64,000 nucleotides of DNA, from positions 5,156 to 69,155 of the forward strand of contig JALOTL010000014.1 in assembly GCA_025457915.1 (NCBI GenBank), in the 5' to 3' direction. The position numbers and the translations under genes were made by a program. The notes beneath the pieces were generated by a model, which was not told where the DNA came from, ran no database searches, and saw nothing but the letters and a program-made list of their open reading frames with translations. This DNA is from Spirochaetota bacterium. Lineage in GTDB: Bacteria; Spirochaetota; UBA4802; UBA5550. This document shows positions 1 through 56,237 of this stretch, piece by piece. Position 1 is the stretch's first letter. Every line of letters begins with the position of its first letter.

Positions 1-150
1 TGCTCCGGGTCGGATGAAATGGTCTCGGGAAACGTGACCAGCCGCGCCGGGATCGGGTGGTTCATCATGAAGCCGTTTTTCATCGGCGAGCTCGCGAGGG
101 CCGTGCGCGCAGCCCTGGATGAAGATCCCGGGCTGCGGCCTTTCAAATAA
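1..150 (+). CDS. Partial CDS, C-terminal end of a response-regulator receiver domain (5' end lies outside the window)
   Basis: Frame 1 is open from the window start to TAA at 148-150. The translation ends ...FIMKPFFIGELARAVRAALDEDPGLRPFK, a receiver-domain C-terminal KPF motif. Confidence 0.35.
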   Translation, partial: CSGSDEMVSGNVTSRAGIGWFIMKPFFIGELARAVRAALDEDPGLRPFK

Positions 151-318: not shown

Positions 319-645
319 ATGGAAATCACCGTTACGAAGAAAGCAAACGCCGTAATCCTGAAGGTCGACGGACGCATGGACGCGTCCACCAGCCCGGAGT
401 TCGACCGTGAGTGCGGCGCGCTCATAGACGCGGGCGAGAGGTCGCTGGTCGTGGATTTCGGCGGCCTTGAATACATAAGCAGCGCCGGGCTGCGCTCCCT
501 TCTCTCGGCGGCGAAAAAATTGAAGGCCATGCAGGGACAGATCAGGCTCTGCCGCATGGGCGGTCTCGTGCAGGAGGTGTTCGCCCTGTCCGGTTTCGCC
601 TCCATGTTCAGCATCTATCCCGGCGTGGAGGAAGCGCTTGCCTGA
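319..645 (+). CDS. STAS-domain anti-sigma-factor antagonist (SpoIIAA/RsbV-like)
   Basis: The 108-aa product has an ...VDFGGLEYISSAGLRSLL... STAS signature with the phosphorylatable Ser region. An AAAGGAGG RBS precedes the ATG at 319. Confidence 0.8.
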   Translation: MEITVTKKANAVILKVDGRMDASTSPEFDRECGALIDAGERSLVVDFGGLEYISSAGLRSLLSAAKKLKAMQGQIRLCRMGGLVQEVFALSGFASMFSIYPGVEEALA

Positions 646-1108
646 ACCAGCGAGACATTCCGCGGGTCCCCTGAGGCTCCCGGCCAGGCGGGAATCCCTG
701 GCCCTGGTCAGGGAATATGTCGGGAAGAACCTCGAGGCGTGCGGCCTGCCAGGGGACCGGCGGCTCAGGTTGGAGCTGGCGGTTGAGGAGATCGCGGCCA
801 ATATCATAACCTACGCCTATTCCCCCGCCGGAAGCGGGGACCTGGAATGCGGATTCGCCGCCGACGGGAAAACGGCCGAGGTTTCACTGACCGACTGGGG
901 CGCGGCGTTCAACCCCCTTGAAAAAGAGGACCCGGACCTTGCGCCTGAACTCGACCGCAGGGAGCCGGGCGGCCTCGGCATATATCTCGCAAGAAACCTG
1001 GCCGGTTCATGCAGCTACAGGCGCGATGGAGGCAGAAACATCCTTACCATCTCGATGCCGCTCCAGCCTGAAGCCGGCAGCGCGCGTTCAAAGGAGGAAG
1101 GGGCATGA
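638..1108 (+). CDS. Anti-sigma regulatory factor, Ser/Thr kinase with GHKL ATPase fold (RsbW/SpoIIAB-like)
   Basis: The ...ELAVEEIAANIITYAY...EPGGLGIYLARNLAG... HATPase_c motifs are present. It overlaps the STAS stop by 8 nt, and the exact start is uncertain. Confidence 0.7.
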   Translation: MPEPARHSAGPLRLPARRESLALVREYVGKNLEACGLPGDRRLRLELAVEEIAANIITYAYSPAGSGDLECGFAADGKTAEVSLTDWGAAFNPLEKEDPDLAPELDRREPGGLGIYLARNLAGSCSYRRDGGRNILTISMPLQPEAGSARSKEEGA

Positions 1109-2613
1109 GCGACTTTCATTTCAGGCTGGTCAGCGGCACGCACCTCTCCGGCCGCGAGGTCGAGGAGGCCTGCCTCGTTCTCAGCGCGGGCTACTCCGCG
1201 TGGCAGAAAAACCCGAAAAACCTCCATCCCGCGGTCACCGACACCTCGCCGGAAGCGTACAGGAAGGTGATGTGCAGCGACAACCACGAGGCAGTGCTGT
1301 ACTACGAGGCCGGCACCCTCCGGGGCGTATTCCTGCACGCCCTCTCGCCCGAATACGACCGCTACCCCCTCAGGAAAATCTCCTACCTGGCCGTCCAGCC
1401 GGCCGAGAAGGGATACGAGCCGCTGAAACGGATCTTCTCGCGGTACGCGGATTTCGTGAGGTCGCAGGGCGAGGACATGGTAATCACGAGCGACCTCGAC
1501 CAGGCAACCCTCAACGGCCTGCTTGAGCACGCCGGCTTCCACGAGGTCGTGGACAGGAACGAGACGTTCTTCATCCTGTCCCACCTGCTGCAGAAAAAAA
1601 TATTCTCCTTCCAGAAGGTGAACGGGGATTTCGTCATAGACCAGATCATCAAGCTCGAAGGCAAGGCGGTGAGGCGCGACAAGAAGCTCCTGAAGCTCCA
1701 GACCACGGGATACGACTTCTATAGTCTTTACAGGGACCAGCAGTCAAAGAGGCTGCGCCGCTCGATCTCGCCCGCCAGGATGGACCTGCTCAGGGCGGCT
1801 TTCGCGCGGGCCGCGGAGGGGGTGCATTTCATCAGCGCCTTCGACGGCACGATCACGCTGGACCGCGAGGACGGGGGAGGATTCAATCCCACGCCCCTGC
1901 TCATCGGCGAAAACGCGGACGGCCTGCGGGGCGAGATCATCGACGAAAAGGCGGGCCTGATATATCTCCTTCCGGGCACCGACGGGGAGCTGGCGAGGAT
2001 CGCTTCGCGCATAAGGTTCCGGCCGGGATTCTTCGATTTCCTTTTCTTCTGCCTCAAGGCCCTCGGTTCGGTCTACGTCATCTCCGGGGCGCTTCCCGGA
2101 CTGGTGCAAGCCGCGCTCGAGCGGCCCCTCGCGCCCGGGCTCCCGCTCTGCTACAGGGACCTGATCGAGAGCGTCATAGCGCCGGACATCACCATGCTCG
2201 GCGGGACGACGAAGAGGCTTTCCGACGGTTCGCTTCGGACCGCGTACAGGGCGGGCGGCGGTTTCGCGGACCTCTCCGGGGGCGAATATTCGGCGCGCAA
2301 GGACCTCATGGTCGAGTCCGTGCTTTCGCTGAAGGGCGACACAGCAGCTCCGGTTGTATATCTCTGCAGCGACCTGAGGGACGCGCCCGCCCTGGCCAGG
2401 CTGTACGATGAGTCGCGCAGGCGGTCATTGCCGGTGATTGTTTTCGATTTTGGAAAAGAGGCCGCGCTCTGGGTCAACAGGGAGGCGGCGGGCATGGACC
2501 CGGAGGCCAATCCCTATTTCAGCGTTGTAGGCATACGCGATTTCTACCAGATCCCGGTCATGCTCGAGGAGGCGGGACTGACCCTCGGACTGGACGAGGA
2601 CTTCCTGGCATGA
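1105..2613 (+). CDS. Hypothetical 502-aa protein inside the partner-switching operon, with a possible GNAT-like N-terminal region
   Basis: The ORF is long with codon usage like its neighbours. It has an ATGA overlap with the upstream kinase stop and another with the downstream phosphatase start. The N-terminal region (YLAVQPAEKGYEPL...HAGFHEV) loosely resembles an acetyltransferase fold. Confidence 0.5.
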   Translation: MSDFHFRLVSGTHLSGREVEEACLVLSAGYSAWQKNPKNLHPAVTDTSPEAYRKVMCSDNHEAVLYYEAGTLRGVFLHALSPEYDRYPLRKISYLAVQPAEKGYEPLKRIFSRYADFVRSQGEDMVITSDLDQATLNGLLEHAGFHEVVDRNETFFILSHLLQKKIFSFQKVNGDFVIDQIIKLEGKAVRRDKKLLKLQTTGYDFYSLYRDQQSKRLRRSISPARMDLLRAAFARAAEGVHFISAFDGTITLDREDGGGFNPTPLLIGENADGLRGEIIDEKAGLIYLLPGTDGELARIASRIRFRPGFFDFLFFCLKALGSVYVISGALPGLVQAALERPLAPGLPLCYRDLIESVIAPDITMLGGTTKRLSDGSLRTAYRAGGGFADLSGGEYSARKDLMVESVLSLKGDTAAPVVYLCSDLRDAPALARLYDESRRRSLPVIVFDFGKEAALWVNREAAGMDPEANPYFSVVGIRDFYQIPVMLEEAGLTLGLDEDFLA

Positions 2614-4601
2614 AGACACCCGAAACACTGAAGCGCGCGATTACGGCCGCGGCCTCCCTCTGGAAGGGCCGCCTTTCGGTGAAGCTGACCGCCTCGGTGC
2701 TCCTCAGCACCGGGTTCATTTTCTGCTCCGTCATCCTGTATTATTACTATTCCTCCAAGGCCATCGTGCTCGACGACGCCCAGACGAACGCCAGGAACCT
2801 CGCGCAGTCCGTCATCAACAGGATGATGATCCTCTCCAACTCCATCGAGACGCTGACGGCGCACACGGCGCGCTCGCTCGAGGTCTATTCCTTCAGGCAG
2901 GACCGCATACGGCAGGAACTCGGCCAGTTCGTCGCGAACAACAGGGACATCTACGGATCGGCGGTCGCCTTCGAGCCCTGGTCCCACGCGCCGGACAGGA
3001 AATATTACGCCCCGTACTGCCACAGGCGCGGCGAGTCCGTCGAGTTCACCGTGCTCGGCGGGCCGGAATACGATTACTTCTCGATGGGCTGGTACTCGAG
3101 ACCGAAGGAGTCCGGGAAGGCGATGTGGAGCGAGCCATACTTCGACAGGGGCGGAGGCAACATCATCATGACCACCTACTCCGTCCCCTTCTACAGCGGG
3201 ACCGGGCCCGGCAGGAAGTTCCGCGGCGTCGTGACCGCGGACGTGTCCATAGAATGGATACACGGGTTCGTCTCCACCCTGAAGTTCTACGACACCGGCT
3301 ACGCGTTCCTTGTGTCCGGAGAAGGGACGGTGGTTTCGCACCCGAACGCCTCGTACATTTTTTCCATGAACATCAACGAATTCACGCGCAGGACCGGGGA
3401 CGGCAGGATGATCGAGCTGTGCCGCAAAATAACGAAAGGGGACGCCGGGTACGGTTTCGCGCGGGATTTCTTCACCAAAAAGGAATCCTTCATTTATTAT
3501 GCCCCAATAATAGCCTCCGGCGCATCCATGGCCTCGATGGTCATATTCGTCCCGGAAGAGGAGCTGTTCGGAGACATACGCAAGCTAGCGCGCAACGTCT
3601 TCGCGATCGGGATAGTCGGGGCCGCGGCCCTCGTGCTGGTGATATCGGCCATCTCGCGGAGGATCACCCGCCCCATCCACTCCCTGGCGGGGATCACTCG
3701 GGAAATTGCCCGCGGCAACCTGGACATCGAGGTGCCCTGCCAGGACTCAGGCGACGAGATCGGCACCCTCGCCCTCTCCTTCACCTCCATGAAGACGGCG
3801 CTCAGAGAATACATCGCGGACCTCAGGGAAACCACCGCGGCCAAGGAAAGGATCGAGAGCGAGCTCAGCCTCGCCCGCGCGATCCAGCAGAGCTTCCTGC
3901 CCCGCGGGCCGCTTCCGGCTGGACCGGTATGCGGCTGCGACGCCTTCGGGGCCATAGAAATGGCGAGGCAGGTGGGCGGAGACCTTTACGATTTCTTCAT
4001 GCTGGACGGGGAACGGCTTTTCTTCCTGATCGGGGACGTTTCCGACAAGGGAATGGCCGCGGCCCTGTTCATGGCCGTCACCAGGACCCTGTTCCGCGCG
4101 GCGGCTTCGCCGCTGATGGAGCCCTCTGCGATTCTGGAACGCGTCAACCCGGAGCTCTGCCGGGACAACGAGTCATCGATGTTCGTGACCCTCTTCTGCG
4201 CCGTGTACCACACCCGAACGGGCGAGCTGAGGTATTCCAACGCGGGGCACAACCCCCCGCTGATCCTGAAGACGGACCGCACGGTCGTCCGCCTGGCGTC
4301 CCCCTCGGGGATCGCGCTGGGAGCGAAGGACGGCGCGGGCTACGAAACCGGCAGCGCGGCCCTCGGCCCGGGAGACGTCTGCCTGGCCTACACGGACGGC
4401 ATCACGGAAGCGATGGACCCGTCCGGGGCCTTCTACACGGAACCACGCCTGGCCGGGACGCTGGCTTCAGCGGAGGATTTTTCCCCGAGGGGACTGGTGG
4501 AACGCGTCCTCGGGTCCGTGCGGGACTTCGCCGGTGGTGCGCCGCAGTCTGACGATATGACTCTTTTCTGCCTGAGGAACACCGGCAGGGGTAACCCGTA
4601 G
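2610..4601 (+). CDS. Sensor PP2C-family serine phosphatase (RsbU/SpoIIE-like) with periplasmic Cache-like domain, transmembrane segments and HAMP
   Basis: It has an N-terminal TM segment and a roughly 300-aa periplasmic domain, then a second TM followed by a HAMP region (...GNLDIEVPCQDSGDEIGTLALSF...). The C-terminal PP2C motifs are GGDLYDF...FLIGDVSDKGMAAALFM...YTDGITEA. Confidence 0.8.
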   Translation: MKTPETLKRAITAAASLWKGRLSVKLTASVLLSTGFIFCSVILYYYYSSKAIVLDDAQTNARNLAQSVINRMMILSNSIETLTAHTARSLEVYSFRQDRIRQELGQFVANNRDIYGSAVAFEPWSHAPDRKYYAPYCHRRGESVEFTVLGGPEYDYFSMGWYSRPKESGKAMWSEPYFDRGGGNIIMTTYSVPFYSGTGPGRKFRGVVTADVSIEWIHGFVSTLKFYDTGYAFLVSGEGTVVSHPNASYIFSMNINEFTRRTGDGRMIELCRKITKGDAGYGFARDFFTKKESFIYYAPIIASGASMASMVIFVPEEELFGDIRKLARNVFAIGIVGAAALVLVISAISRRITRPIHSLAGITREIARGNLDIEVPCQDSGDEIGTLALSFTSMKTALREYIADLRETTAAKERIESELSLARAIQQSFLPRGPLPAGPVCGCDAFGAIEMARQVGGDLYDFFMLDGERLFFLIGDVSDKGMAAALFMAVTRTLFRAAASPLMEPSAILERVNPELCRDNESSMFVTLFCAVYHTRTGELRYSNAGHNPPLILKTDRTVVRLASPSGIALGAKDGAGYETGSAALGPGDVCLAYTDGITEAMDPSGAFYTEPRLAGTLASAEDFSPRGLVERVLGSVRDFAGGAPQSDDMTLFCLRNTGRGNP

Positions 4602-4723
4602 CCGGGCAGGAAACCGGTGAAATCCTCCCCCATTCAACCAATAAATGTCAAAAAAAATCACCGGGATGTCACAAATCAGCATGATTTCAGTATAAGAAGC
4701 ATAAGGAAAGACGGGTAAGCGCC

Positions 4724-5605
4724 ATGTACAATCCATTCGCGGAAAAAGACGGCCGCGGCGCAAGCGACGCCGATTATATCGCCGGAGCGCTGAAGGGCGA
4801 CCCGGAAGCGCTGGAGGGCCTCGTGTTGAGGCACCAGGCATGGATATTCAACATCGCGGTCAACATGACCAACGACGTGGAGGCCTCCCAGGACATAACA
4901 CAGGAGGTCCTCATAAAGGTCATAACGAACCTGTCTTCATACGATCCGGGTAAGGCGGCTTTCAGGACCTGGCTCTACCGCATCGCGGCGAACCACATAC
5001 TCGACATGAAGCGCAGCCGGAAAGAAAGAACCATGTCGGATCTTTACAGGGTGAAAAATTTCAACGAATACATGGCGTCCATACCGGACACCCGCAAATC
5101 CTCCAGGCCCGGCTACCCGGTGATCGCGGAGGAGACCAAAAAAGCCTGCCTCCAGTGCGTACTGCTCTGCCTCGGCAGGAGGGACCGCCTCGTTTTCGTT
5201 CTGGGCGCAATGTTCGGTGCCGGAGACGGAACCGGGAGCGAGATCTGCGGAATCTCTCGCGTAAATTACCGCAAGATCCTTTCGCGCTCGAGGCAGAGGG
5301 TGAGGGACTTTTTCATGAAAAACTGCGGGCTCGTCAGCGACGATAATCCCTGCAGGTGCGGAGAAAGAACGGCCCCGCTCGCCGCGCTCGACATGATCAG
5401 CGAGCCGGGCGTGAAGGCCATGCGCGAGTCCGGACAGACAATAGGCGATACGATAGGCAGGTCGGTGGAAGAGCTGGAGGACTCGTACCACGAGTTCACC
5501 GCGCTTTTCAGGAGCCAGCCGTTTTACCGGGGGCCGGACATGACGGCCTGGCTCAGGGACCTGCTCGGGAGGAGCGACATCCGGGCCCTCCTGGGCACGG
5601 AATGA
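4724..5605 (+). CDS. ECF-type RNA polymerase sigma-70 family factor with a C-terminal extension containing a CRCG motif
   Basis: Sigma region 2 (...RHQAWIFNIAVNMTNDVEASQDITQEVLIKV...FRTWLYRIAANHILD...) and a region 4 HTH (GISRVNYRKILSRSRQRVRDF) are present. An extra C-terminal domain of about 90 aa carries NPCRCGERT. Confidence 0.75.
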   Translation: MYNPFAEKDGRGASDADYIAGALKGDPEALEGLVLRHQAWIFNIAVNMTNDVEASQDITQEVLIKVITNLSSYDPGKAAFRTWLYRIAANHILDMKRSRKERTMSDLYRVKNFNEYMASIPDTRKSSRPGYPVIAEETKKACLQCVLLCLGRRDRLVFVLGAMFGAGDGTGSEICGISRVNYRKILSRSRQRVRDFFMKNCGLVSDDNPCRCGERTAPLAALDMISEPGVKAMRESGQTIGDTIGRSVEELEDSYHEFTALFRSQPFYRGPDMTAWLRDLLGRSDIRALLGTE

Positions 5606-5623
5606 AAACAGAGGAGAACAAGC

Positions 5624-6703
5624 ATGGACATGTACGAAAGGTTCAGGGAAATGCTCGACGCACACCCGTCAGGCGCGCCGGCCAGCGCGGCCTTCACGGA
5701 GATTTTAAAGATATTATTCACCGGGGATGAAATCGAGGCCGCCATCCATCTGGGGTTCATCCCGAAGACAGCGGAGCAGGTCGCGCTCGCGTCCGGCCTC
5801 GAGGTCAGGGAAGCCGAGCGGAGGCTCGACTCCATGGCGGGAAGGCTGGTGATCAATTCGCGCGTGAAGGACGGCGCCACGCTCTACTCCATCCTGCCCA
5901 CGGTCCCGGGACTCTTCGAACTGCAGTTCATGAACGGCGGCGGGACGCCGGCGCACGAGAGGCTGGGCGGGCTCTGGACCGAGTACAACGGCGAGGCCAT
6001 GATCAGGTCCCTGGCGGGCGAGCCGACCCCGCAGATGAGGGTGGTGCCGGTGCAGAAGTCCCTTCTTCCCGAAAACCGCATCCATACACATGACGAAATC
6101 GAACAGATGATCCGCGGATCGGATTACATCGCGGTCGCCCACTGCGCCTGCCGCGTCAGCAAACGCTCGTGCGGTTCGCCGACCGAGGTGTGCCTGATCT
6201 TCGGCGCGCTCGCGAAGGCCGTCGTCAGCCGGGGCAGCGCCAGGCTGGTCTCCGCCGACGGGGCCATGGACGTGCTCCGAACGGCCGAGGAGGCCGGGCT
6301 GGTCCACACAAGCAACAACAGCGCGGAAAAGCCGGTCATAGTCTGCAGCTGCTGCAGGTGCTGCTGCCATTTCCTGCGGGGGCTCACGGAGCACGGTGAG
6401 CGCAATGCCGTTTCGCCGAGCGCCTTCGCCGCGAAAGTGAGGCCGGACGACTGCACCGCCTGCGGGATCTGCAGGGACAGGCGCTGCCCGGTGAAGGCCA
6501 TCGAAGAGCGGGACGGCGCGTATGCCGCGGACCCTGAAAAATGCATCGGCTGCGGACTGTGCGCGTCCGGATGCCCGGCTTCGGCGATAGACATGGTACC
6601 CAGGGAAAAAATCCCCGAAGTCCCCGCCACCCAGCAGGAGATGATACTCACAATGCTGAAGGAGAAGGGGAAGCTGGAGAGGTTCATGAAGCTTTTAAGG
6701 TGA
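5624..6703 (+). CDS. Cys-rich iron-sulfur protein with C-terminal 2x[4Fe-4S] ferredoxin motifs; N-terminal domain unknown
   Basis: The C-terminal CTACGICRDRRCP and CIGCGLCASGCP are CxxCxxCxxxCP motifs. Further Cys clusters HCACRVSKRSCG and CSCCRCCCHF are present. The gene sits 19 bp downstream of the ECF sigma gene. Confidence 0.6.
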   Translation: MDMYERFREMLDAHPSGAPASAAFTEILKILFTGDEIEAAIHLGFIPKTAEQVALASGLEVREAERRLDSMAGRLVINSRVKDGATLYSILPTVPGLFELQFMNGGGTPAHERLGGLWTEYNGEAMIRSLAGEPTPQMRVVPVQKSLLPENRIHTHDEIEQMIRGSDYIAVAHCACRVSKRSCGSPTEVCLIFGALAKAVVSRGSARLVSADGAMDVLRTAEEAGLVHTSNNSAEKPVIVCSCCRCCCHFLRGLTEHGERNAVSPSAFAAKVRPDDCTACGICRDRRCPVKAIEERDGAYAADPEKCIGCGLCASGCPASAIDMVPREKIPEVPATQQEMILTMLKEKGKLERFMKLLR

Positions 6704-6797
6704 GGGGATTGTCGAAGAAATACGGCGATTGTGTCTTTGAAAATGTGATCGTAAGCCCGGGCTGCTCTATGAAAAAATACAGAAGAATCCGGGATTA

Positions 6798-6922
6798 GCG
6801 GAGGATTATTCCCCGGGGCGCATGGTGGAACGCGTCCCGGGGTCCGTGCGGGTGGAGCGCCGCAGTCGGACGACATGACGCTTTTCTGCCTGAGGAACAC
6901 CGGCGGGGGGGGGGAACCCACA
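6798..6922 (+). pseudogene. Degenerate duplicate of the last ~130 bp of the PP2C phosphatase gene (coordinates 4470-4601), with a G10 homopolymer
   Basis: By-eye alignment of 6798-6922 against 4470-4601 gives roughly 85% identity with one ~10-bp deletion. The copy does not reside in an intact ORF in that frame. A G10 run lies at 6905-6914. Confidence 0.6.
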
Positions 6923-7081
6923 GGCCGGCTCCGGCGTTTTTCACAGTCAGCATTAGAGGAATAATACCCGGTTGAATCTCTGCCAATCCCCTGACCGCTT
7001 ATGGCGCAGGAAATAAATAATGTCTTAAGAAAAAAATACTTGATGACGGACCGCTATTTCCGCATATTTATACAAAACAAG

Positions 7082-7258
7082 GAGAAAATTTATGGCGGCT
7101 TTGCGTGAAAAATACATCGTCGACGGCAAGGGAAAAAAAAGTGAAGTCATACTTCCAATCGAGAAATACAATGAACTGCTTGAAGACATCCACGACCTGG
7201 GCATCATCGCTGAAAGAAAAAACGATAAAACCCTGTCATTCGACGAGTTAAAAAAAAG
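7082..7258 (+). CDS. Small antitoxin (58 aa) of a type II toxin-antitoxin pair
   Basis: The ATG at 7082 is preceded by AAGGAGAAAA. The product MAALREKYIVDGKGKKSEVILPIEKYNELLEDIHDLGIIAERKNDKTLSFDELKKRIK is a typical short antitoxin partner. It lies immediately upstream of the RelE/ParE-like gene. Confidence 0.55.
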
Positions 7259-7272
7259 GATCAAATAGCCGC

Positions 7273-7527
7273 TTGTACGATATATGCTTCAAACAACAGG
7301 TCAAAAAAGATTTTAAGCATATTGAACGCCAATATGCGGCCGCCATAGTCGATAAAATCAAAACTCTTGAAAAAAACCCATTTCCTAAAAATTCGCGAAA
7401 ACTGACCGGAACCGAGATGTCATACCGTCTCAGGGTGGGTGATTACAGGATAATATACCAGGTTGACGTCAGACAGAAACTCATAACCATTTTTTACGTC
7501 CGTCACAGAAAAGACGCTTATAAATAA
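7273..7527 (+). CDS. RelE/ParE-family type II toxin (mRNA interferase-like)
   Basis: The motifs ...KQQVKKDFKHI...NPFPKNSRKLTGTEMSYRLRVGDYRIIYQVD...ITIFYVRHRKDAY match the RelE/ParE signature. A TTG start is likely. Confidence 0.8.
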   Translation: MYDICFKQQVKKDFKHIERQYAAAIVDKIKTLEKNPFPKNSRKLTGTEMSYRLRVGDYRIIYQVDVRQKLITIFYVRHRKDAYK

Positions 7528-7933
7528 TTGCAATGATTTACGCTTTGAATTTCCTGCCATAATCCGCCGGATATTTTCTAGCTCCCCTGGAATAGAATCG
7601 CCGCGCGCGCTTCGCGCTGTCCGGCCCGCCGCTTTTTTCTTCTGTAAAACTCTCCCGTTTCATGCCATCCTGCCGCATTGTTTTATCGCTTTGTGCCAGG
7701 GAATTTTTCCCTGTATAAACGGTGCTGTTTTCGGAAAGCCGTCCGCCAATTCGTCCACATTTTATGGAGTTAATCTGGTTTTAATCTTTATTATTGACAA
7801 GCGGTACCGGCAATGATATATTTAATATACGCCTGACGGGCAAGCCATTGTAAATCGCACGTTTTGTATTATTGCGGAACAGTTAAATGCATTTAAGGGC
7901 CACCCGCAAACATTCATTGATCTGGTTCTGGCC

Positions 7934-9286
7934 ATGGAAAGGGAAACGATAGAGAAAAGCGCCATCCGGAAAAAGTACTTCATCAAATCCCAGGTCATTG
8001 TCATGTTCGGCTATGCCATGACCCAGGCCGGGACCCTCGTCGCCAGGCAGCTCGGTTTCTCTTCGATTTCCTACGGTGAAATTCTATTCGTCACCCTCTC
8101 CACAATGGGATTTACCCTGCTCGTTACAGTCGTCGTGAAGCCGAAAAAAATCATAAGCAATGCATTCATCCAGACGGTCGTAAAGATACAATTCGTCTTC
8201 TGGCTTATGATGTACATGTTCTGGATATATTTTCTCCAGGAGGCCAGGATACTGGGTCTGTTTTTCGCCTTCATGCCTCTCATATTTCTCGCGACGAATT
8301 CGAATTTCATCCAATCGCTGATTATTTCAATAGCCGTTGCGGTTATCCAGCTTGTCGCGTCATATTACGCCATCAATTTCGCCCACCAGGGCGGGTCCTT
8401 CAAAGATGTCGTGTTCTATACATCATGGTTTTTTCCTTCGGCGTTATATATCGCCTATGTTGCCGGACTCTTTCACAAAAAGAGAAAAGAAGTCAGGCAG
8501 TCGAAACAGGATGCCGAACTTGCGCGCGACGCCCTCTGGGGAGAGATGGAACTCGCGAAAAAAATACAGACCATACTGCTTCCCAAAAGACCCGACATAT
8601 TGGGATATGAAATTGCAAGCTACATGAGTCCGGCCAATGAGGTTGGAGGCGATTATTATGATATAATCGACTTCAACGGCTATCACTGGATCATCATCGG
8701 AGACGTTTCGGGTCATGGCGTTCCCGCCGGACTGGTCATGATGATGACGCAGACCGCAATTCATAACTCCCTGCAGGACGATCCGAGGATATCTCCGTCG
8801 GACCTCCTGATAAAAATCAATAAAACCATTACGGCCAACATCAAACTGATGGACGAAAGCACATATATGACCATTACGGTCTTTGCCGTAGTCGAAGACA
8901 ATCATCTGGTCTACTCGGGTCTTCACCAGGATATTTTCATTTACAGGGAAAGGGATGACAGGGTGGAGACGCTGCAGACGGAAGGCATGTGGATCGGATT
9001 GATCGATGACATAACTCCCATGGTAAACGACAAAAAGTTCCACCTGGACAGGGGCGACTGCATGCTTCTCTATACCGACGGCGTGACGGAATCATGGGAA
9101 GCCGGTCATGGCAATGATGCCGACAAAAGAGCGCCCCGTTATTTCGGCAAAGACAGGTTGAAGGCAATATTAAACGACGGCGGCAAAAGCAGCCCTGAAA
9201 TACTCAAACGAAAAATCCTCGACGAGCTCAATCACTACAGGAACAACGACGACGTTACGTTTTTAATCATCAAAAGGGTCAACTGA
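7934..9286 (+). CDS. Membrane-anchored PP2C/SpoIIE-family serine phosphatase (N-terminal multi-TM domain)
   Basis: The N-terminal ~190 aa form a hydrophobic multi-TM region. They are followed by the PP2C motifs ...EVGGDYYDIIDF...IIGDVSGHGVPAGLVMMM...YTDGVTE. Confidence 0.8.
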   Translation: MERETIEKSAIRKKYFIKSQVIVMFGYAMTQAGTLVARQLGFSSISYGEILFVTLSTMGFTLLVTVVVKPKKIISNAFIQTVVKIQFVFWLMMYMFWIYFLQEARILGLFFAFMPLIFLATNSNFIQSLIISIAVAVIQLVASYYAINFAHQGGSFKDVVFYTSWFFPSALYIAYVAGLFHKKRKEVRQSKQDAELARDALWGEMELAKKIQTILLPKRPDILGYEIASYMSPANEVGGDYYDIIDFNGYHWIIIGDVSGHGVPAGLVMMMTQTAIHNSLQDDPRISPSDLLIKINKTITANIKLMDESTYMTITVFAVVEDNHLVYSGLHQDIFIYRERDDRVETLQTEGMWIGLIDDITPMVNDKKFHLDRGDCMLLYTDGVTESWEAGHGNDADKRAPRYFGKDRLKAILNDGGKSSPEILKRKILDELNHYRNNDDVTFLIIKRVN

Positions 9287-9533
9287 ACCCTGTTTTTGAA
9301 TTTCATTTCTTTATGGATCCCTATCATGGATCAAACAGAGGTGGATTAAAAAGTTAAATTAAGCGGCCGGGGTATACTGGATGGAGCGTTCATGCCGCCC
9401 ATCCATCTCTTCACAAAGTTGTAATCCATGCCGGGACTGCCGCCGCTGACGCACTTTCCACCTCCCGGGGAACGAAACAGTCACTGGCCGGACGTTTTGG
9501 TGCGGCGATGCCGGGGATGACAATACGCCTCGC

Positions 9534-54722: not shown

Positions 54723-56237
54723 TCATATAATGTCCATGCATATCAGGCATATATCATCATCAAAAGTATCCGCCTTTCTGTAAGCGACAAGCTCCTCCAT
54801 CAGTTTATCAAGAAATTTATCGCAGGGAAGACCGTGATTGTCGATAAAGACCTGCCCCATGTGCGCGTATTCAAACAGTGTATCATCGTCGACCGGCCTT
54901 GCTTCGACAAGACCGTCGGTGTAAAGAAGCAGTTTGCTACCGGCCTGGAAAAATTCCATGTGGTTTTCAAATTTTTTATTGGCCCGGGCAAGCATGTTGT
55001 TCGAAAACATGGCAATGGCCGTGTTCTTTCCGCCCTGGAGCTGTTTCACATCTTTATCGGTAATTATATAGGGCTGGTTATGCCCCGCGTTTGCGTACAG
55101 GAAGGATTTTTCACACGGATCATAGATCCCGCAGAATGCCGTCACGAAATTTCCAGCGGTCTGGCTCTGCAGGACCTCGTTCATATGATAAAGCAGGGAT
55201 GCCGGGTCGTATATAAGGTCCCCCGCCTGGAGGATGATGGTTTTAATCATCGATGTTATAAAGGCGGCCGGGACCCCGTGACCCGAGACGTCACTGAGAA
55301 ATATTCCGATGTTGTCCGAATCCTTGAATGATATGAAATTATAAAAATCGCCCCCGAGCTGTTCCATGGGTTTATACACGGATGATATGAACGGCACGGG
55401 CGTAGTATCCGGTATTAATTTTTTCTGGATTTTTCTCGCCAGTATTATTTCATGCTCCATTATCTGGTTTCTGGACTGCAGTTTGTTTCTTTCGATTTCC
55501 AGCTCGAGGGTCCTTTCCCTGACTATATTTTCAAGCATGGTGCTGTATGTTTTCAGCATGTTGAAATTATTATTGTCCTCCTGTATAAAATCCATGAACA
55601 TATAAAGGACGTAAATAAAAAACAGGAATTCAATTATCATCGGGAATTGATATATTTTATGCGCGACCGAGAAGTCATTGATCCCCCCGACTATGCCGAC
55701 AAGGCTGAATATTAAAGATGCGACCCTGTTTTTTAAGTTCTTTTCATGGAAAATACTCCTGTAAATCGTAAACAGGAAAATCATTATATAGCCGAAAGAA
55801 TATATCGTATAGGCCAGGTTGGTTTTAGCAAACCGGTAATCAAAAGTCATGAAATACGCATTGATCTGCAGATGCGTAATCGGATACGAGGTGAAGATAT
55901 CAAACGGGATGATGAATAGATACGCAAAAGAGAAATATAGATAAAAATTGACGATTTTATTTCTTTTCAGGTAGGCGGTATAAATCGTCAATAATGTCGA
56001 CGACGAACAAATCAGCGCCCCGACCATTTTCAGCTTGTGAAGTATCAGTATGGTTGAATCAGAATAATCATTCGACAGCAGCAATTCGAACAATATAAAA
56101 ATAGCGGCCCCGAGGCTTGACAGGCTGAAATAAAAATATTTATCGATGGCCTTATATATTTTCAAGACCCTGATAAAATAATAAACGGCGATAAATATTA
56201 AGATAGAAGAAAGAGATATTAAAATTAATTTATACAT
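54723..56237 (-). CDS. 7TM-sensor PP2C/SpoIIE-family serine phosphatase
   Basis: A roughly 230-aa N-terminal domain with 7 hydrophobic helices is followed by a coiled coil. The PP2C motifs are ...QLGGDFYNFISF...IFLSDVSGHGVPAAFITSM...YTDGLVEA. Confidence 0.8.
   Translation of the reverse strand: MYKLILISLSSILIFIAVYYFIRVLKIYKAIDKYFYFSLSSLGAAIFILFELLLSNDYSDSTILILHKLKMVGALICSSSTLLTIYTAYLKRNKIVNFYLYFSFAYLFIIPFDIFTSYPITHLQINAYFMTFDYRFAKTNLAYTIYSFGYIMIFLFTIYRSIFHEKNLKNRVASLIFSLVGIVGGINDFSVAHKIYQFPMIIEFLFFIYVLYMFMDFIQEDNNNFNMLKTYSTMLENIVRERTLELEIERNKLQSRNQIMEHEIILARKIQKKLIPDTTPVPFISSVYKPMEQLGGDFYNFISFKDSDNIGIFLSDVSGHGVPAAFITSMIKTIILQAGDLIYDPASLLYHMNEVLQSQTAGNFVTAFCGIYDPCEKSFLYANAGHNQPYIITDKDVKQLQGGKNTAIAMFSNNMLARANKKFENHMEFFQAGSKLLLYTDGLVEARPVDDDTLFEYAHMGQVFIDNHGLPCDKFLDKLMEELVAYRKADTFDDDICLICMDII

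Follow-up and report, generated by a model that had tools for sequence, protein, structure and literature searches.

The locus lies at positions 319 to 4,601 of a 64,000-nucleotide stretch of DNA (the window) and comprises four co-directional genes. The first (319..645, + strand) encodes a STAS-domain-only antagonist of 108 aa, with an AGGAGG 8 nt upstream of its ATG start, and the second (638..1108, +) a RsbW/SpoIIAB-type serine kinase of 156 aa. The third gene (1105..2613, +) codes for a 502-aa member of an orphan family, here called X, which combines a GNAT-fold domain with a pseudo-HAD-fold domain, while the fourth (2610..4601, +) codes for a 663-aa membrane sensor phosphatase with the architecture TM, periplasmic PDC/dCache, TM, HAMP and PP2C (SpoIIE). 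Successive genes overlap by 8, 4 and 4 nt, the kinase/X and X/phosphatase junctions both being ATGA overlaps; this is the arrangement described in an earlier note on this DNA, and the open reading frames were recovered exactly where it had placed them. The kinase starts with TTG, which is the sole canonical start codon 5' of a conserved LRLPA motif and has a GGAGGA 5 nt upstream, and the 8-nt STAS/kinase overlap is also seen in an 88%-identical relative (L004), where the kinase homologue (P0052) has 157 aa. The four genes are translationally coupled.

Profile searches bear out the identities proposed earlier for the antagonist, the RsbW-like kinase and the Cache/HAMP-PP2C phosphatase. The antagonist matches the STAS models PF01740 (4.4e-20) and TIGR00377 (1e-21), and its phosphorylatable serine lies within the sequence EYISSAGL; in our alignment this serine motif is kept in all STAS proteins linked to X. 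The kinase matches HATPase_c_2 (PF13581, 6.5e-25), and its N-box (EEIAAN), G1 box (DWGAAF) and G2 box (GGLGIY) are conserved across the aligned X-linked kinases. In the phosphatase (2610-4601) the SpoIIE match (PF07228, 7e-53) spans profile positions 2-190 of 192, and the sensor part is recognized by the Pfam models MCP-like_PDC_1 (1.5e-29), dCache_1 and HAMP. With the STAS serine, the N, G1 and G2 boxes of the kinase and a full-length SpoIIE match all present, the module is, to judge from its sequence, competent as a phospho-switch. Further downstream in the window a second PP2C gene (7934..9286, +; SpoIIE 3e-31) encodes a polytopic membrane protein of 450 aa; its counterpart in L004 is divergent and lies directly upstream of the STAS gene, and it is possibly a second input phosphatase. 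None of the five proteins searched against the PADLOC component models for anti-phage defence gave a match.

It had been noted previously that the operon encodes no sigma factor. This holds for the four coupled genes; however, in this window alone, a gene for an ECF-type sigma factor of 293 aa with a C-terminal extension (4724..5605, +; Sigma70_r2 4e-18, TIGR02937 7e-18) lies 122 nt beyond the phosphatase stop codon in the same orientation. It is possibly a downstream, non-conserved member of the operon, and its proximity raises the question of whether this is an anti-sigma switch of the conventional type that targets the sigma factor, with X being a co-transcribed passenger or an enzyme of the regulon. 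The co-orientation, the short distance and the failure of terminator prediction to find any terminator-like site in the 122-nt gap all favor such a reading. Nevertheless, RsbW/SpoIIAB-type kinases are known as partners of group-3 sigmas, an ECF sigma usually has an anti-sigma factor dedicated to it, and in some ECF groups the C-terminal extension is self-regulatory. Moreover, the gene is preceded by its own AT-rich upstream region, and no sigma gene adjoins X at any other locus examined, including L043, which shares the same operon architecture. We accordingly consider it improbable that the ECF-type sigma factor is the target.

We then come to X itself. Searches recovered about 40 homologues in 38 clusters, nearly all of them 498-527 aa in length and alignable end to end; the conserved length and collinear alignment rule out an artefactual fusion of two genes and establish X as a genuine single gene, as had been supposed. 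When relatives with about 25% identity were included in a second profile search, the 38 clusters were recovered again, with no further distant relatives, and among 1.84 billion proteins (1.84e9) only 15 representatives were detected. Comparisons with Pfam, NCBIfam, PADLOC and the sequences of the PDB yielded no named family, the only signal being a sub-threshold match to MtnX/HAD-IB; with neither a Pfam nor an NCBIfam family above cut-off, the earlier description of this component as unrecognized stands. In the AF2 model of X (pLDDT 82.6, pTM 0.83) two domains are predicted, a GNAT domain and a HAD fold whose active site is being eroded, and this combination defines an unannotated family. The family has very few members, and none is known outside uncultured Desulfobacterota and Chloroflexota; its general relevance is limited accordingly.

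The N-terminal domain (residues 1-163; 1105..1593, +) displays the complete GNAT topology in the AF2 model, in agreement with the GNAT-like N-terminus suspected in the earlier note, although none of the acetyltransferase families of Pfam or NCBIfam matches it at E-values up to 0.01. Conservation in X peaks in this domain, where 21% of the columns are invariant, among them TDTSP (45-49), E62, H78, P88/R90/K91, P99, G103, E123/D124 and T135-L136-N137; such constraint is as expected of an active or binding site. The full topology is shared with NatD/Naa40 (4u9w), Gcn5/PCAF and HP0935 (8iym). Unlike these acyltransferases, X, whose catalysis is putative, lacks a GNAT HMM match and keeps the motif A glycines only in part: the loop before helix 3 that corresponds to the pyrophosphate site (Q/R-x-x-G-x-G/A) reads QPAEKG-YEPL, with P99 and G103 invariant and the middle glycine absent. 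Because the loop departs from the consensus, the use of acyl-CoA by X is uncertain. We also considered TDTSP as a substrate of the kinase and regard this as unlikely, since it is the STAS fold that such kinases recognize and since neither T45 nor T47 is constant among distant relatives. The GNAT domain is followed by a basic (RRxKK) segment (residues 164-192; 1594..1680, +) that is modelled with low confidence (pLDDT 31-42) yet is strongly conserved, with 7 of its 29 columns invariant. A precedent for the overall organization is the mycobacterial Pat, a cAMP-dependent, domain-regulated GNAT in which, as in X, the GNAT fold is fused to a second domain of a regulatory type.

The C-terminal region (residues 193-495; 1681..2589, +) is predicted to adopt an HAD-IB-like fold of the MtnX/SerB/cN-III type with degenerate catalytic motifs. 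The Rossmannoid core and the cap, both present in the predicted structure, are common to MtnX (2fea), SerB/PSP (3p96, 1f5s, 1l7o) and cN-III (4nv0), and X further shares with the HAD-IB phosphatases the FDGTIT context of motif I, the motif II serine, the motif III lysine and a RPGxxDFL...GS block. It differs from them in the absence of the nucleophilic aspartate of motif I and of the first aspartate of motif IV. In the register given by profile alignment to MtnX, residues 245-249 read A-F-D-G-T, placing Ala245 (1837-1839) at the nucleophile position; among 34 relatives this column holds G in 12, S in 11, D in 8, A in 2 and N in 1. By comparison, the motif II serine (S327) is found in 31 of the 34 and is threonine in the remaining 3, and the motif III lysine (K399) is present in 33, though it is not kept in the relatives with about 25% identity. 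Neither the GDxxxD nor the DD form of motif IV is present: its first aspartate position is occupied by S, N or G, D426 is kept in 29 of 34, and D423 occurs in 19 of 34 at a spacing non-canonical for this motif. Among curated HAD models the best score was 18.3 bits with TIGR01489 (cut-off 81.55), and no Pfam HAD family was matched. On account of the lost nucleophile we read this unit as a regulatory, ligand-binding or docking domain rather than a phosphatase. The retention of phosphate-contacting residues after this loss also makes it conceivable that the domain is a non-hydrolysing reader of the STAS phosphoserine, or of another phospho-ligand, that toggles the fused GNAT domain. This more specific proposal is a long shot; if true, X would turn a signal of serine phosphorylation into one of acylation, an output of a new kind for a partner switch and a novel role for a pseudo-phosphatase. 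By inspection, the state of the HAD active site shows no tie to linkage with switch genes, linked members carrying A, S, G or D at the nucleophile position.

Gene neighborhoods were compared at 32 non-redundant loci, of which 21 have informative flanks. Ten of these loci, all among the 21, carry partner-switching genes no more than 3 kb from X, against about 1.9 of the 32 expected (binomial P ~1e-5). The density of such genes is 0.21 per kb in this interval and 0.017 per kb farther away, a 12.6-fold enrichment. The linked genes are always on the same strand as X, with overlaps or gaps of at most 170 nt, and come from two phyla, Desulfobacterota and Chloroflexota, in shuffled orders. The arrangement STAS-KIN-X-PP2C is found in the window and L004, and STAS-KIN-X in L011, L033 and L035; the other orders are X-STAS-KIN (L014), PP2C-KIN-X-STAS (L009, from Chloroflexi), X-PP2C-KIN-STAS (L037), X-PP2C (L029), STAS-X (L030) and STAS-KIN-hydrolase-X-NMT1-dCache/HAMP/PP2C (L043), the last gene of which has the same architecture as the window phosphatase. 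Across the 10 linked lineages X is associated with STAS in 9, the kinase in 8 and PP2C in 5. Since roughly one in three of the loci examined places X next to switch genes, we regard X as a probable new component of the switch, other than a sigma factor.

The conservation of linkage that the earlier note had asked about is therefore real in that STAS, RsbW-like and PP2C genes recur beside X in independent lineages, but it extends to only 10 of 32 loci, and in roughly half of the informative loci the 3-10 kb around X are free of partner-switch genes. Moreover, between lineage groups the kinases linked to X share only 26-58% identity with one another, and so do the STAS proteins. The possibility that the linked kinases form one exclusive clade was rejected, as every one of them has nearer relatives among about 1000 generic RsbW-like kinases; for the same reason the idea of a single co-inherited module is not supported. 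Many X genes are solitary or have unrelated neighbors, such as genes for an amidohydrolase, Memo, a histidine phosphatase or a small hydrolase. The second recurrent neighbor of X is a small alpha/beta (serine) hydrolase, which is present in four lineages and once inside a switch operon, and which hints at a metabolic role. One could view X as an independent enzyme or pseudoenzyme of metabolism whose gene was repeatedly inserted, with no functional consequence, beside abundant partner-switch paralogues, in genomes that have many of these; the many X genes that stand alone or by such unrelated genes, together with the polyphyly of the linked kinases at this resolution, would be in line with it. 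We hold this to be improbable in light of the strong excess of linkage over both flanking DNA and expectation, the co-directional and closely spaced or overlapping arrangement throughout, and the spread of the linkage over two phyla.

If X belongs to the switch, it could act on either side of it. One precedent for an upstream role is RsbQ, an alpha/beta hydrolase that serves the PAS-PP2C protein RsbP as the energy-stress input of B. subtilis and whose gene is directly upstream of, and co-expressed with, that of the phosphatase, much as X lies beside PP2C. By analogy, X might be an accessory of the input, which makes, modifies or senses a small molecule, or covalently modifies the STAS protein, the kinase or the PP2C, so as to tune the balance between phosphatase and kinase; the pseudo-HAD domain would then supply a pocket for a phospho-ligand and the GNAT domain an acyl-transferase. 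Consistent with this are the translational coupling of X to PP2C in the window, its position directly upstream of PP2C in L029 and L037, the company of the small serine hydrolase in the four lineages mentioned above, and the motif II serine, motif III lysine and D426 kept without a nucleophile, which fits binding without hydrolysis. Conversely, X consists of GNAT and HAD folds, unlike RsbQ, and is linked more often to STAS and the kinase than to PP2C. The linked PP2Cs also have unrelated input architectures, being either soluble proteins of 288-310 aa or dCache-HAMP proteins of 645-663 aa, and the module would be left with no encoded output, as neither a sigma factor nor another candidate output is conserved at X loci. 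An input role thus strikes us as rather unlikely, if less so than a chance association.

As the best explanation we tentatively favor, at somewhat less than even confidence, X as an effector gated by the partner switch. The window resembles the RsbV-RsbW-sigmaB and SpoIIAA-SpoIIAB-sigmaF systems of Bacillus in having a single-domain STAS protein with its serine, a HATPase_c_2 serine kinase and a PP2C, and in the order STAS-kinase-third gene with stop/start overlaps. The third gene in rsbV-rsbW-sigB and spoIIAA-AB-AC is that of sigB or sigF, and in the STAS-KIN-X loci this slot is filled by X. The differences are that the third gene of the window encodes GNAT and pseudo-HAD domains rather than a group-3 sigma, that no sigma is conserved with the module, and that its phosphatase, unlike RsbU, RsbP and SpoIIE, is a periplasmic dCache-HAMP sensor. 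In the scheme that follows, the protein-protein contacts, any acyl transfer and the direction of signalling are all inferred: the dCache-HAMP-PP2C would sense a periplasmic ligand and switch on dephosphorylation of the STAS serine, with the membrane PP2C at 7934-9286 offering a possible second input. The dephosphorylated STAS protein would bind the RsbW-type kinase, and the resulting exchange of partners by X would alter the activity of its GNAT domain. We prefer the canonical geometry, in which the kinase would hold X inactive in the usual place of sigma until dephosphorylated STAS displaces it; nearly as likely is a Sia-type geometry, in which dephosphorylated STAS would bind X directly.

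Enzymes as outputs of partner switches have been described in SiaC-SiaD (PMC7278518, PMC8457831) and for an EPS biosynthetic enzyme of Anabaena (10.64898/2026.04.08.717354). The SiaABCD system of Pseudomonas aeruginosa, in which an enzyme output is controlled through direct protein binding, likewise consists of four genes in one operon, with a membrane PP2C, a kinase and a phospho-switch protein among their products (PMC7278518, PMC8457831, PMC7647112). It differs in gene order and in its output, a GGDEF diguanylate cyclase, there being no GGDEF domain in X, and the window phosphatase scores only 54.5 bits with the SiaA model NF038263 (cut-off 700). A further parallel is furnished by SypE/SypA, BtrUVW, RbaVWY, HmpWUV, HcyA-D and HenR/All4160, which like the X module are STAS/kinase/PP2C sets without a cognate sigma gene; some further protein is presumed to be their output, and a GNAT or HAD protein is absent from the accounts of these systems (PMC8256260, PMC9127174, PMC3999984, 10.64898/2026.04.08.717354). 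In most of them the target lies outside the operon and is still unknown, whereas in the window the candidate is within the operon and recurs across lineages.

Partner-switching modules are widespread, and many of the non-canonical ones are without a known target; those of SypA, RbaV, HmpV and BtrV are listed as unknown in a review (PMC8256260). The present operon itself encodes a candidate non-sigma partner, which recurs in two phyla. This offers a concrete, testable pair or triple of proteins, and the candidate represents a two-domain family that was missed by every curated domain library tested. If its GNAT domain is active, the switch would link Ser/Thr phospho-signalling to acylation.

On the forward strand, a STAS antagonist gene (319-645; Pfam STAS 4e-20, anti-sigma antagonist superfamily 1e-21), an RsbW-type kinase gene (638-1108; HATPase_c_2 6.5e-25), the gene for the 502-aa protein X (1105-2613), which matches nothing in Pfam or NCBIfam, and a phosphatase gene (2610-4601) are linked by overlaps of 8 nt, ATGA and ATGA; both the list of ORFs and the sequence itself bear out this arrangement, which the earlier note had claimed. 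The phosphatase is of the periplasmic-sensor type, combining an MCP-like PDC/dCache region, HAMP and a full-length SpoIIE PP2C domain (7e-53). The kinase begins at a TTG with GGAGGA 5 nt upstream, the sole canonical start 5' of the N-terminal LRLPA motif common to homologous kinases. Because this motif is conserved, the 156-aa product from 638 is favoured over the public call P0053 (112 aa) for the same kinase on a 91-kb JGI contig, whose start lies 44 codons further on and appears to be set too late; a 77%-identical homologue has the same start call as ours. Judged from its sequence the switch is competent, with the serine of the STAS protein, the ATP-binding boxes of the kinase and an intact PP2C all present, and the module has every feature that defines partner switching except an identified target. 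Upstream, window 1-150 contains the 3' part of a gene; by eye, the C-terminus that it encodes resembles a response-regulator receiver domain (IMKPFFIGELARAVRAAL), and an AT-rich spacer of 168 nt lies between this gene and that for STAS.

Among 5.8 billion proteins, a word-indexed search recovered X homologues in 38 clusters, nearly all of 498-527 aa and aligning along their full length with 38-95% identity; no Pfam domains occur among these matches, and their source names read "hypothetical". Such conservation of length and end-to-end alignment indicate that X is a real, conserved two-domain gene and rule out a fusion artefact of two genes. The family is very small: when 1.84 billion cluster representatives were searched exhaustively with a profile, just 15 matched, three of them being full-length relatives at ~25% identity, and a further profile search added nothing. 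The operon is real and non-artefactual, with a previously unannotated component.

An AlphaFold2 model of X from a 34-sequence alignment is confident (pLDDT 82.6, pTM 0.83), with the GNAT order of elements in residues 1-163 and a Rossmannoid domain plus cap in residues 193-495. Foldseek agrees with both folds and found no solved chain bearing the two together. By structure X thus belongs to the GNAT and HAD superfamilies, yet it is recognized by neither the curated GNAT nor the curated HAD sequence models. The intervening residues 164-192 (window 1594-1680; DFVIDQII...GKAVRRxKK) are basic and highly conserved, 7 of 29 columns being invariant, yet poorly modelled (pLDDT 31-42); they might form a docking element and fold upon binding.

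Invariant columns make up 21% of the GNAT half vs 10% of the HAD half. Conserved positions of the GNAT half are, among others, TDTSP 45-49 (the loop between helices 1 and 2), E62, H78, P88/R90/K91 (strand 4), P99 and G103 (ahead of helix 3), E123/D124 and T135-L136-N137; D46, E62, P88, R90 and K91 are kept even in the relatives at ~25% identity. As the classical Q/R-x-x-G-x-G/A loop is kept only in part, use of acyl-CoA by X is plausible, if unproven. Among the 34 family members, the HAD motif I nucleophile column (245) holds G in 12, S in 11, D in 8, A in 2 and N in 1 (the window protein has Ala245, in A-F-D-G-T), and the second motif I position (247) holds D in 19, E in 9 and other residues in 6. 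Better kept are the motif II Ser327 (31/34, T in the other three), the motif III Lys399 (33/34) and D426 (29/34); the first Asp of motif IV is missing, and X itself departs from both motifs I and IV. These degenerate columns, together with the distant relatives that likewise lack the motif I aspartates, argue that phosphatase chemistry is not the conserved function. The HAD domain thus looks like a pseudo-phosphatase, which may still bind a protein, or a ligand that carries phosphate.

We examined 47 loci around X homologues, annotating neighbours with window-protein profiles and Pfam. Ten non-redundant lineages carry partner-switch genes co-directional with X, spaced no more than 170 nt from X or from one another. 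The order is STAS-kinase-X-PP2C in the window and in L004, an 88%-identical relative, STAS-kinase-X in three loci (L011, L033, L035), X-STAS-kinase in L014, PP2C-kinase-X-STAS in L009 from Chloroflexi, X-PP2C-kinase-STAS in L037, X-PP2C at a contig end in L029, STAS-X in L030, and STAS-kinase-small hydrolase-X-NMT1-dCache/HAMP/PP2C in L043. Within 3 kb of X, matches to STAS, kinase or PP2C number 0.21 per kb, vs 0.017 per kb beyond, and linked loci 10/32 vs ~1.9 expected (P ~1e-5). These figures are to be read with three points in mind: X-linked sequences served to train the profiles, some of the linked lineages are kin, and of the three "far" matches two lie in linked loci. This enrichment makes a non-functional co-location unlikely. 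Gene order that is shuffled while proximity is kept, here across two phyla, is the classical mark of a functional association. The linkage is partial: eleven lineages with several kb of flank have no partner-switch genes near X, its neighbours being, for example, an amidohydrolase (upstream) in Anaerolineae, a histidine-phosphatase-like gene and a small hydrolase in Desulfovibrionaceae, a small hydrolase in Desulfobulbaceae, and Memo at one locus. A single co-inherited cassette is not supported, since X is ~55% identical across linked loci whereas between lineage groups the kinases share only 26-37% and the STAS proteins 28-58%, and each linked kinase has closer relatives among ~1000 generic RsbW-like kinases.

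Besides the switch genes, X has another recurrent neighbour, shared by four lineages: a small alpha/beta-hydrolase (156-173 aa, GSSxGG elbow, UPF0227/Hydrolase_4-like; L043 1913-2383, L007 7431-7901, L002 11530-12051 and L022 9619-10122, the last two on the minus strand), absent from the window and lying within the switch operon, between kinase and X, only in L043. There, too, an NMT1/THI5-like periplasmic-binding-type gene overlaps the dCache-HAMP-PP2C start by 8 nt (3908-6830) and could encode a ligand-delivery partner of the sensor phosphatase. Divergent from the STAS-kinase-X operon, L011 (4336-5658, minus) and L035 (4084-5460, minus) encode a 440-458-aa protein with an N-terminal STAS domain followed by ~300 residues without a Pfam match.

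The earlier statement that the operon encodes no sigma factor needs qualification: an ECF-type sigma gene (293 aa, 4724-5605, forward strand) starts 122 nt after the phosphatase stop, and no terminator-like site was found in between. That this sigma is the true output and X a passenger is nevertheless unlikely, as no sigma gene was found beside X at any of the other loci. The sigma has a cysteine-containing C-terminal extension of ~95 aa, and 19 nt beyond its gene comes that of a Cys-rich protein of 359 aa, which ends with a pair of [4Fe-4S] motifs; the two (4724-6703), which are not conserved beside X at other loci, possibly form a redox-linked pair of sigma and regulator. The window has a second PP2C gene at 7934-9286 (450 aa, with a polytopic membrane N-terminus), which sits in a lower-GC patch (39-49%; 7000-9500) adjoining a RelE/ParE-like ORF (7273-7527). 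The L004 copy of this gene (2938-4290) stands immediately 5' of the STAS gene and is transcribed away from it; since the gene has been rearranged yet kept near the operon, its product may provide a second phosphatase input. At 54723-56237, on the minus strand, the window encodes one more SpoIIE-type PP2C (504 aa), its third.

On the reading we favour, X would be the protein whose activity the switch gates. In rsbV-rsbW-sigB-type operons the slot after the kinase is occupied by sigB or sigF. As STAS-kinase-X is the commonest order and kinase-X the tightest junction, we favour a canonical geometry, in which X would be sequestered by the kinase in that slot and displaced from it by dephosphorylated STAS. 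Nearly as likely, dephosphorylated STAS would itself bind and activate X, as dephosphorylated SiaC does SiaD (PMC7278518, PMC8457831): wherever a linked locus has adequate flanks, a STAS gene is present along with X, and one lineage has STAS-X alone. A rival to both is that X is an RsbQ-like accessory or input of the switch. The module would work in the manner of SiaABCD and of the non-canonical STAS systems (review PMC8256260); membership of the Sia family was rejected, as the phosphatase scores 54.5 bits against the SiaA model cut-off of 700 and the module has no GGDEF domain.

Partner switches whose partner is something other than a sigma factor have been described before. What is new here is X, a previously unannotated component within a partner-switch operon; full-text searches found no publication in which a partner switch involves a GNAT or HAD protein. 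The reach of the finding is bounded by a tiny family, a partial linkage and an inferred mechanism. The pseudo-HAD/GNAT architecture of X is unusual, and with the candidate target encoded within the operon its place in the switch is directly testable.
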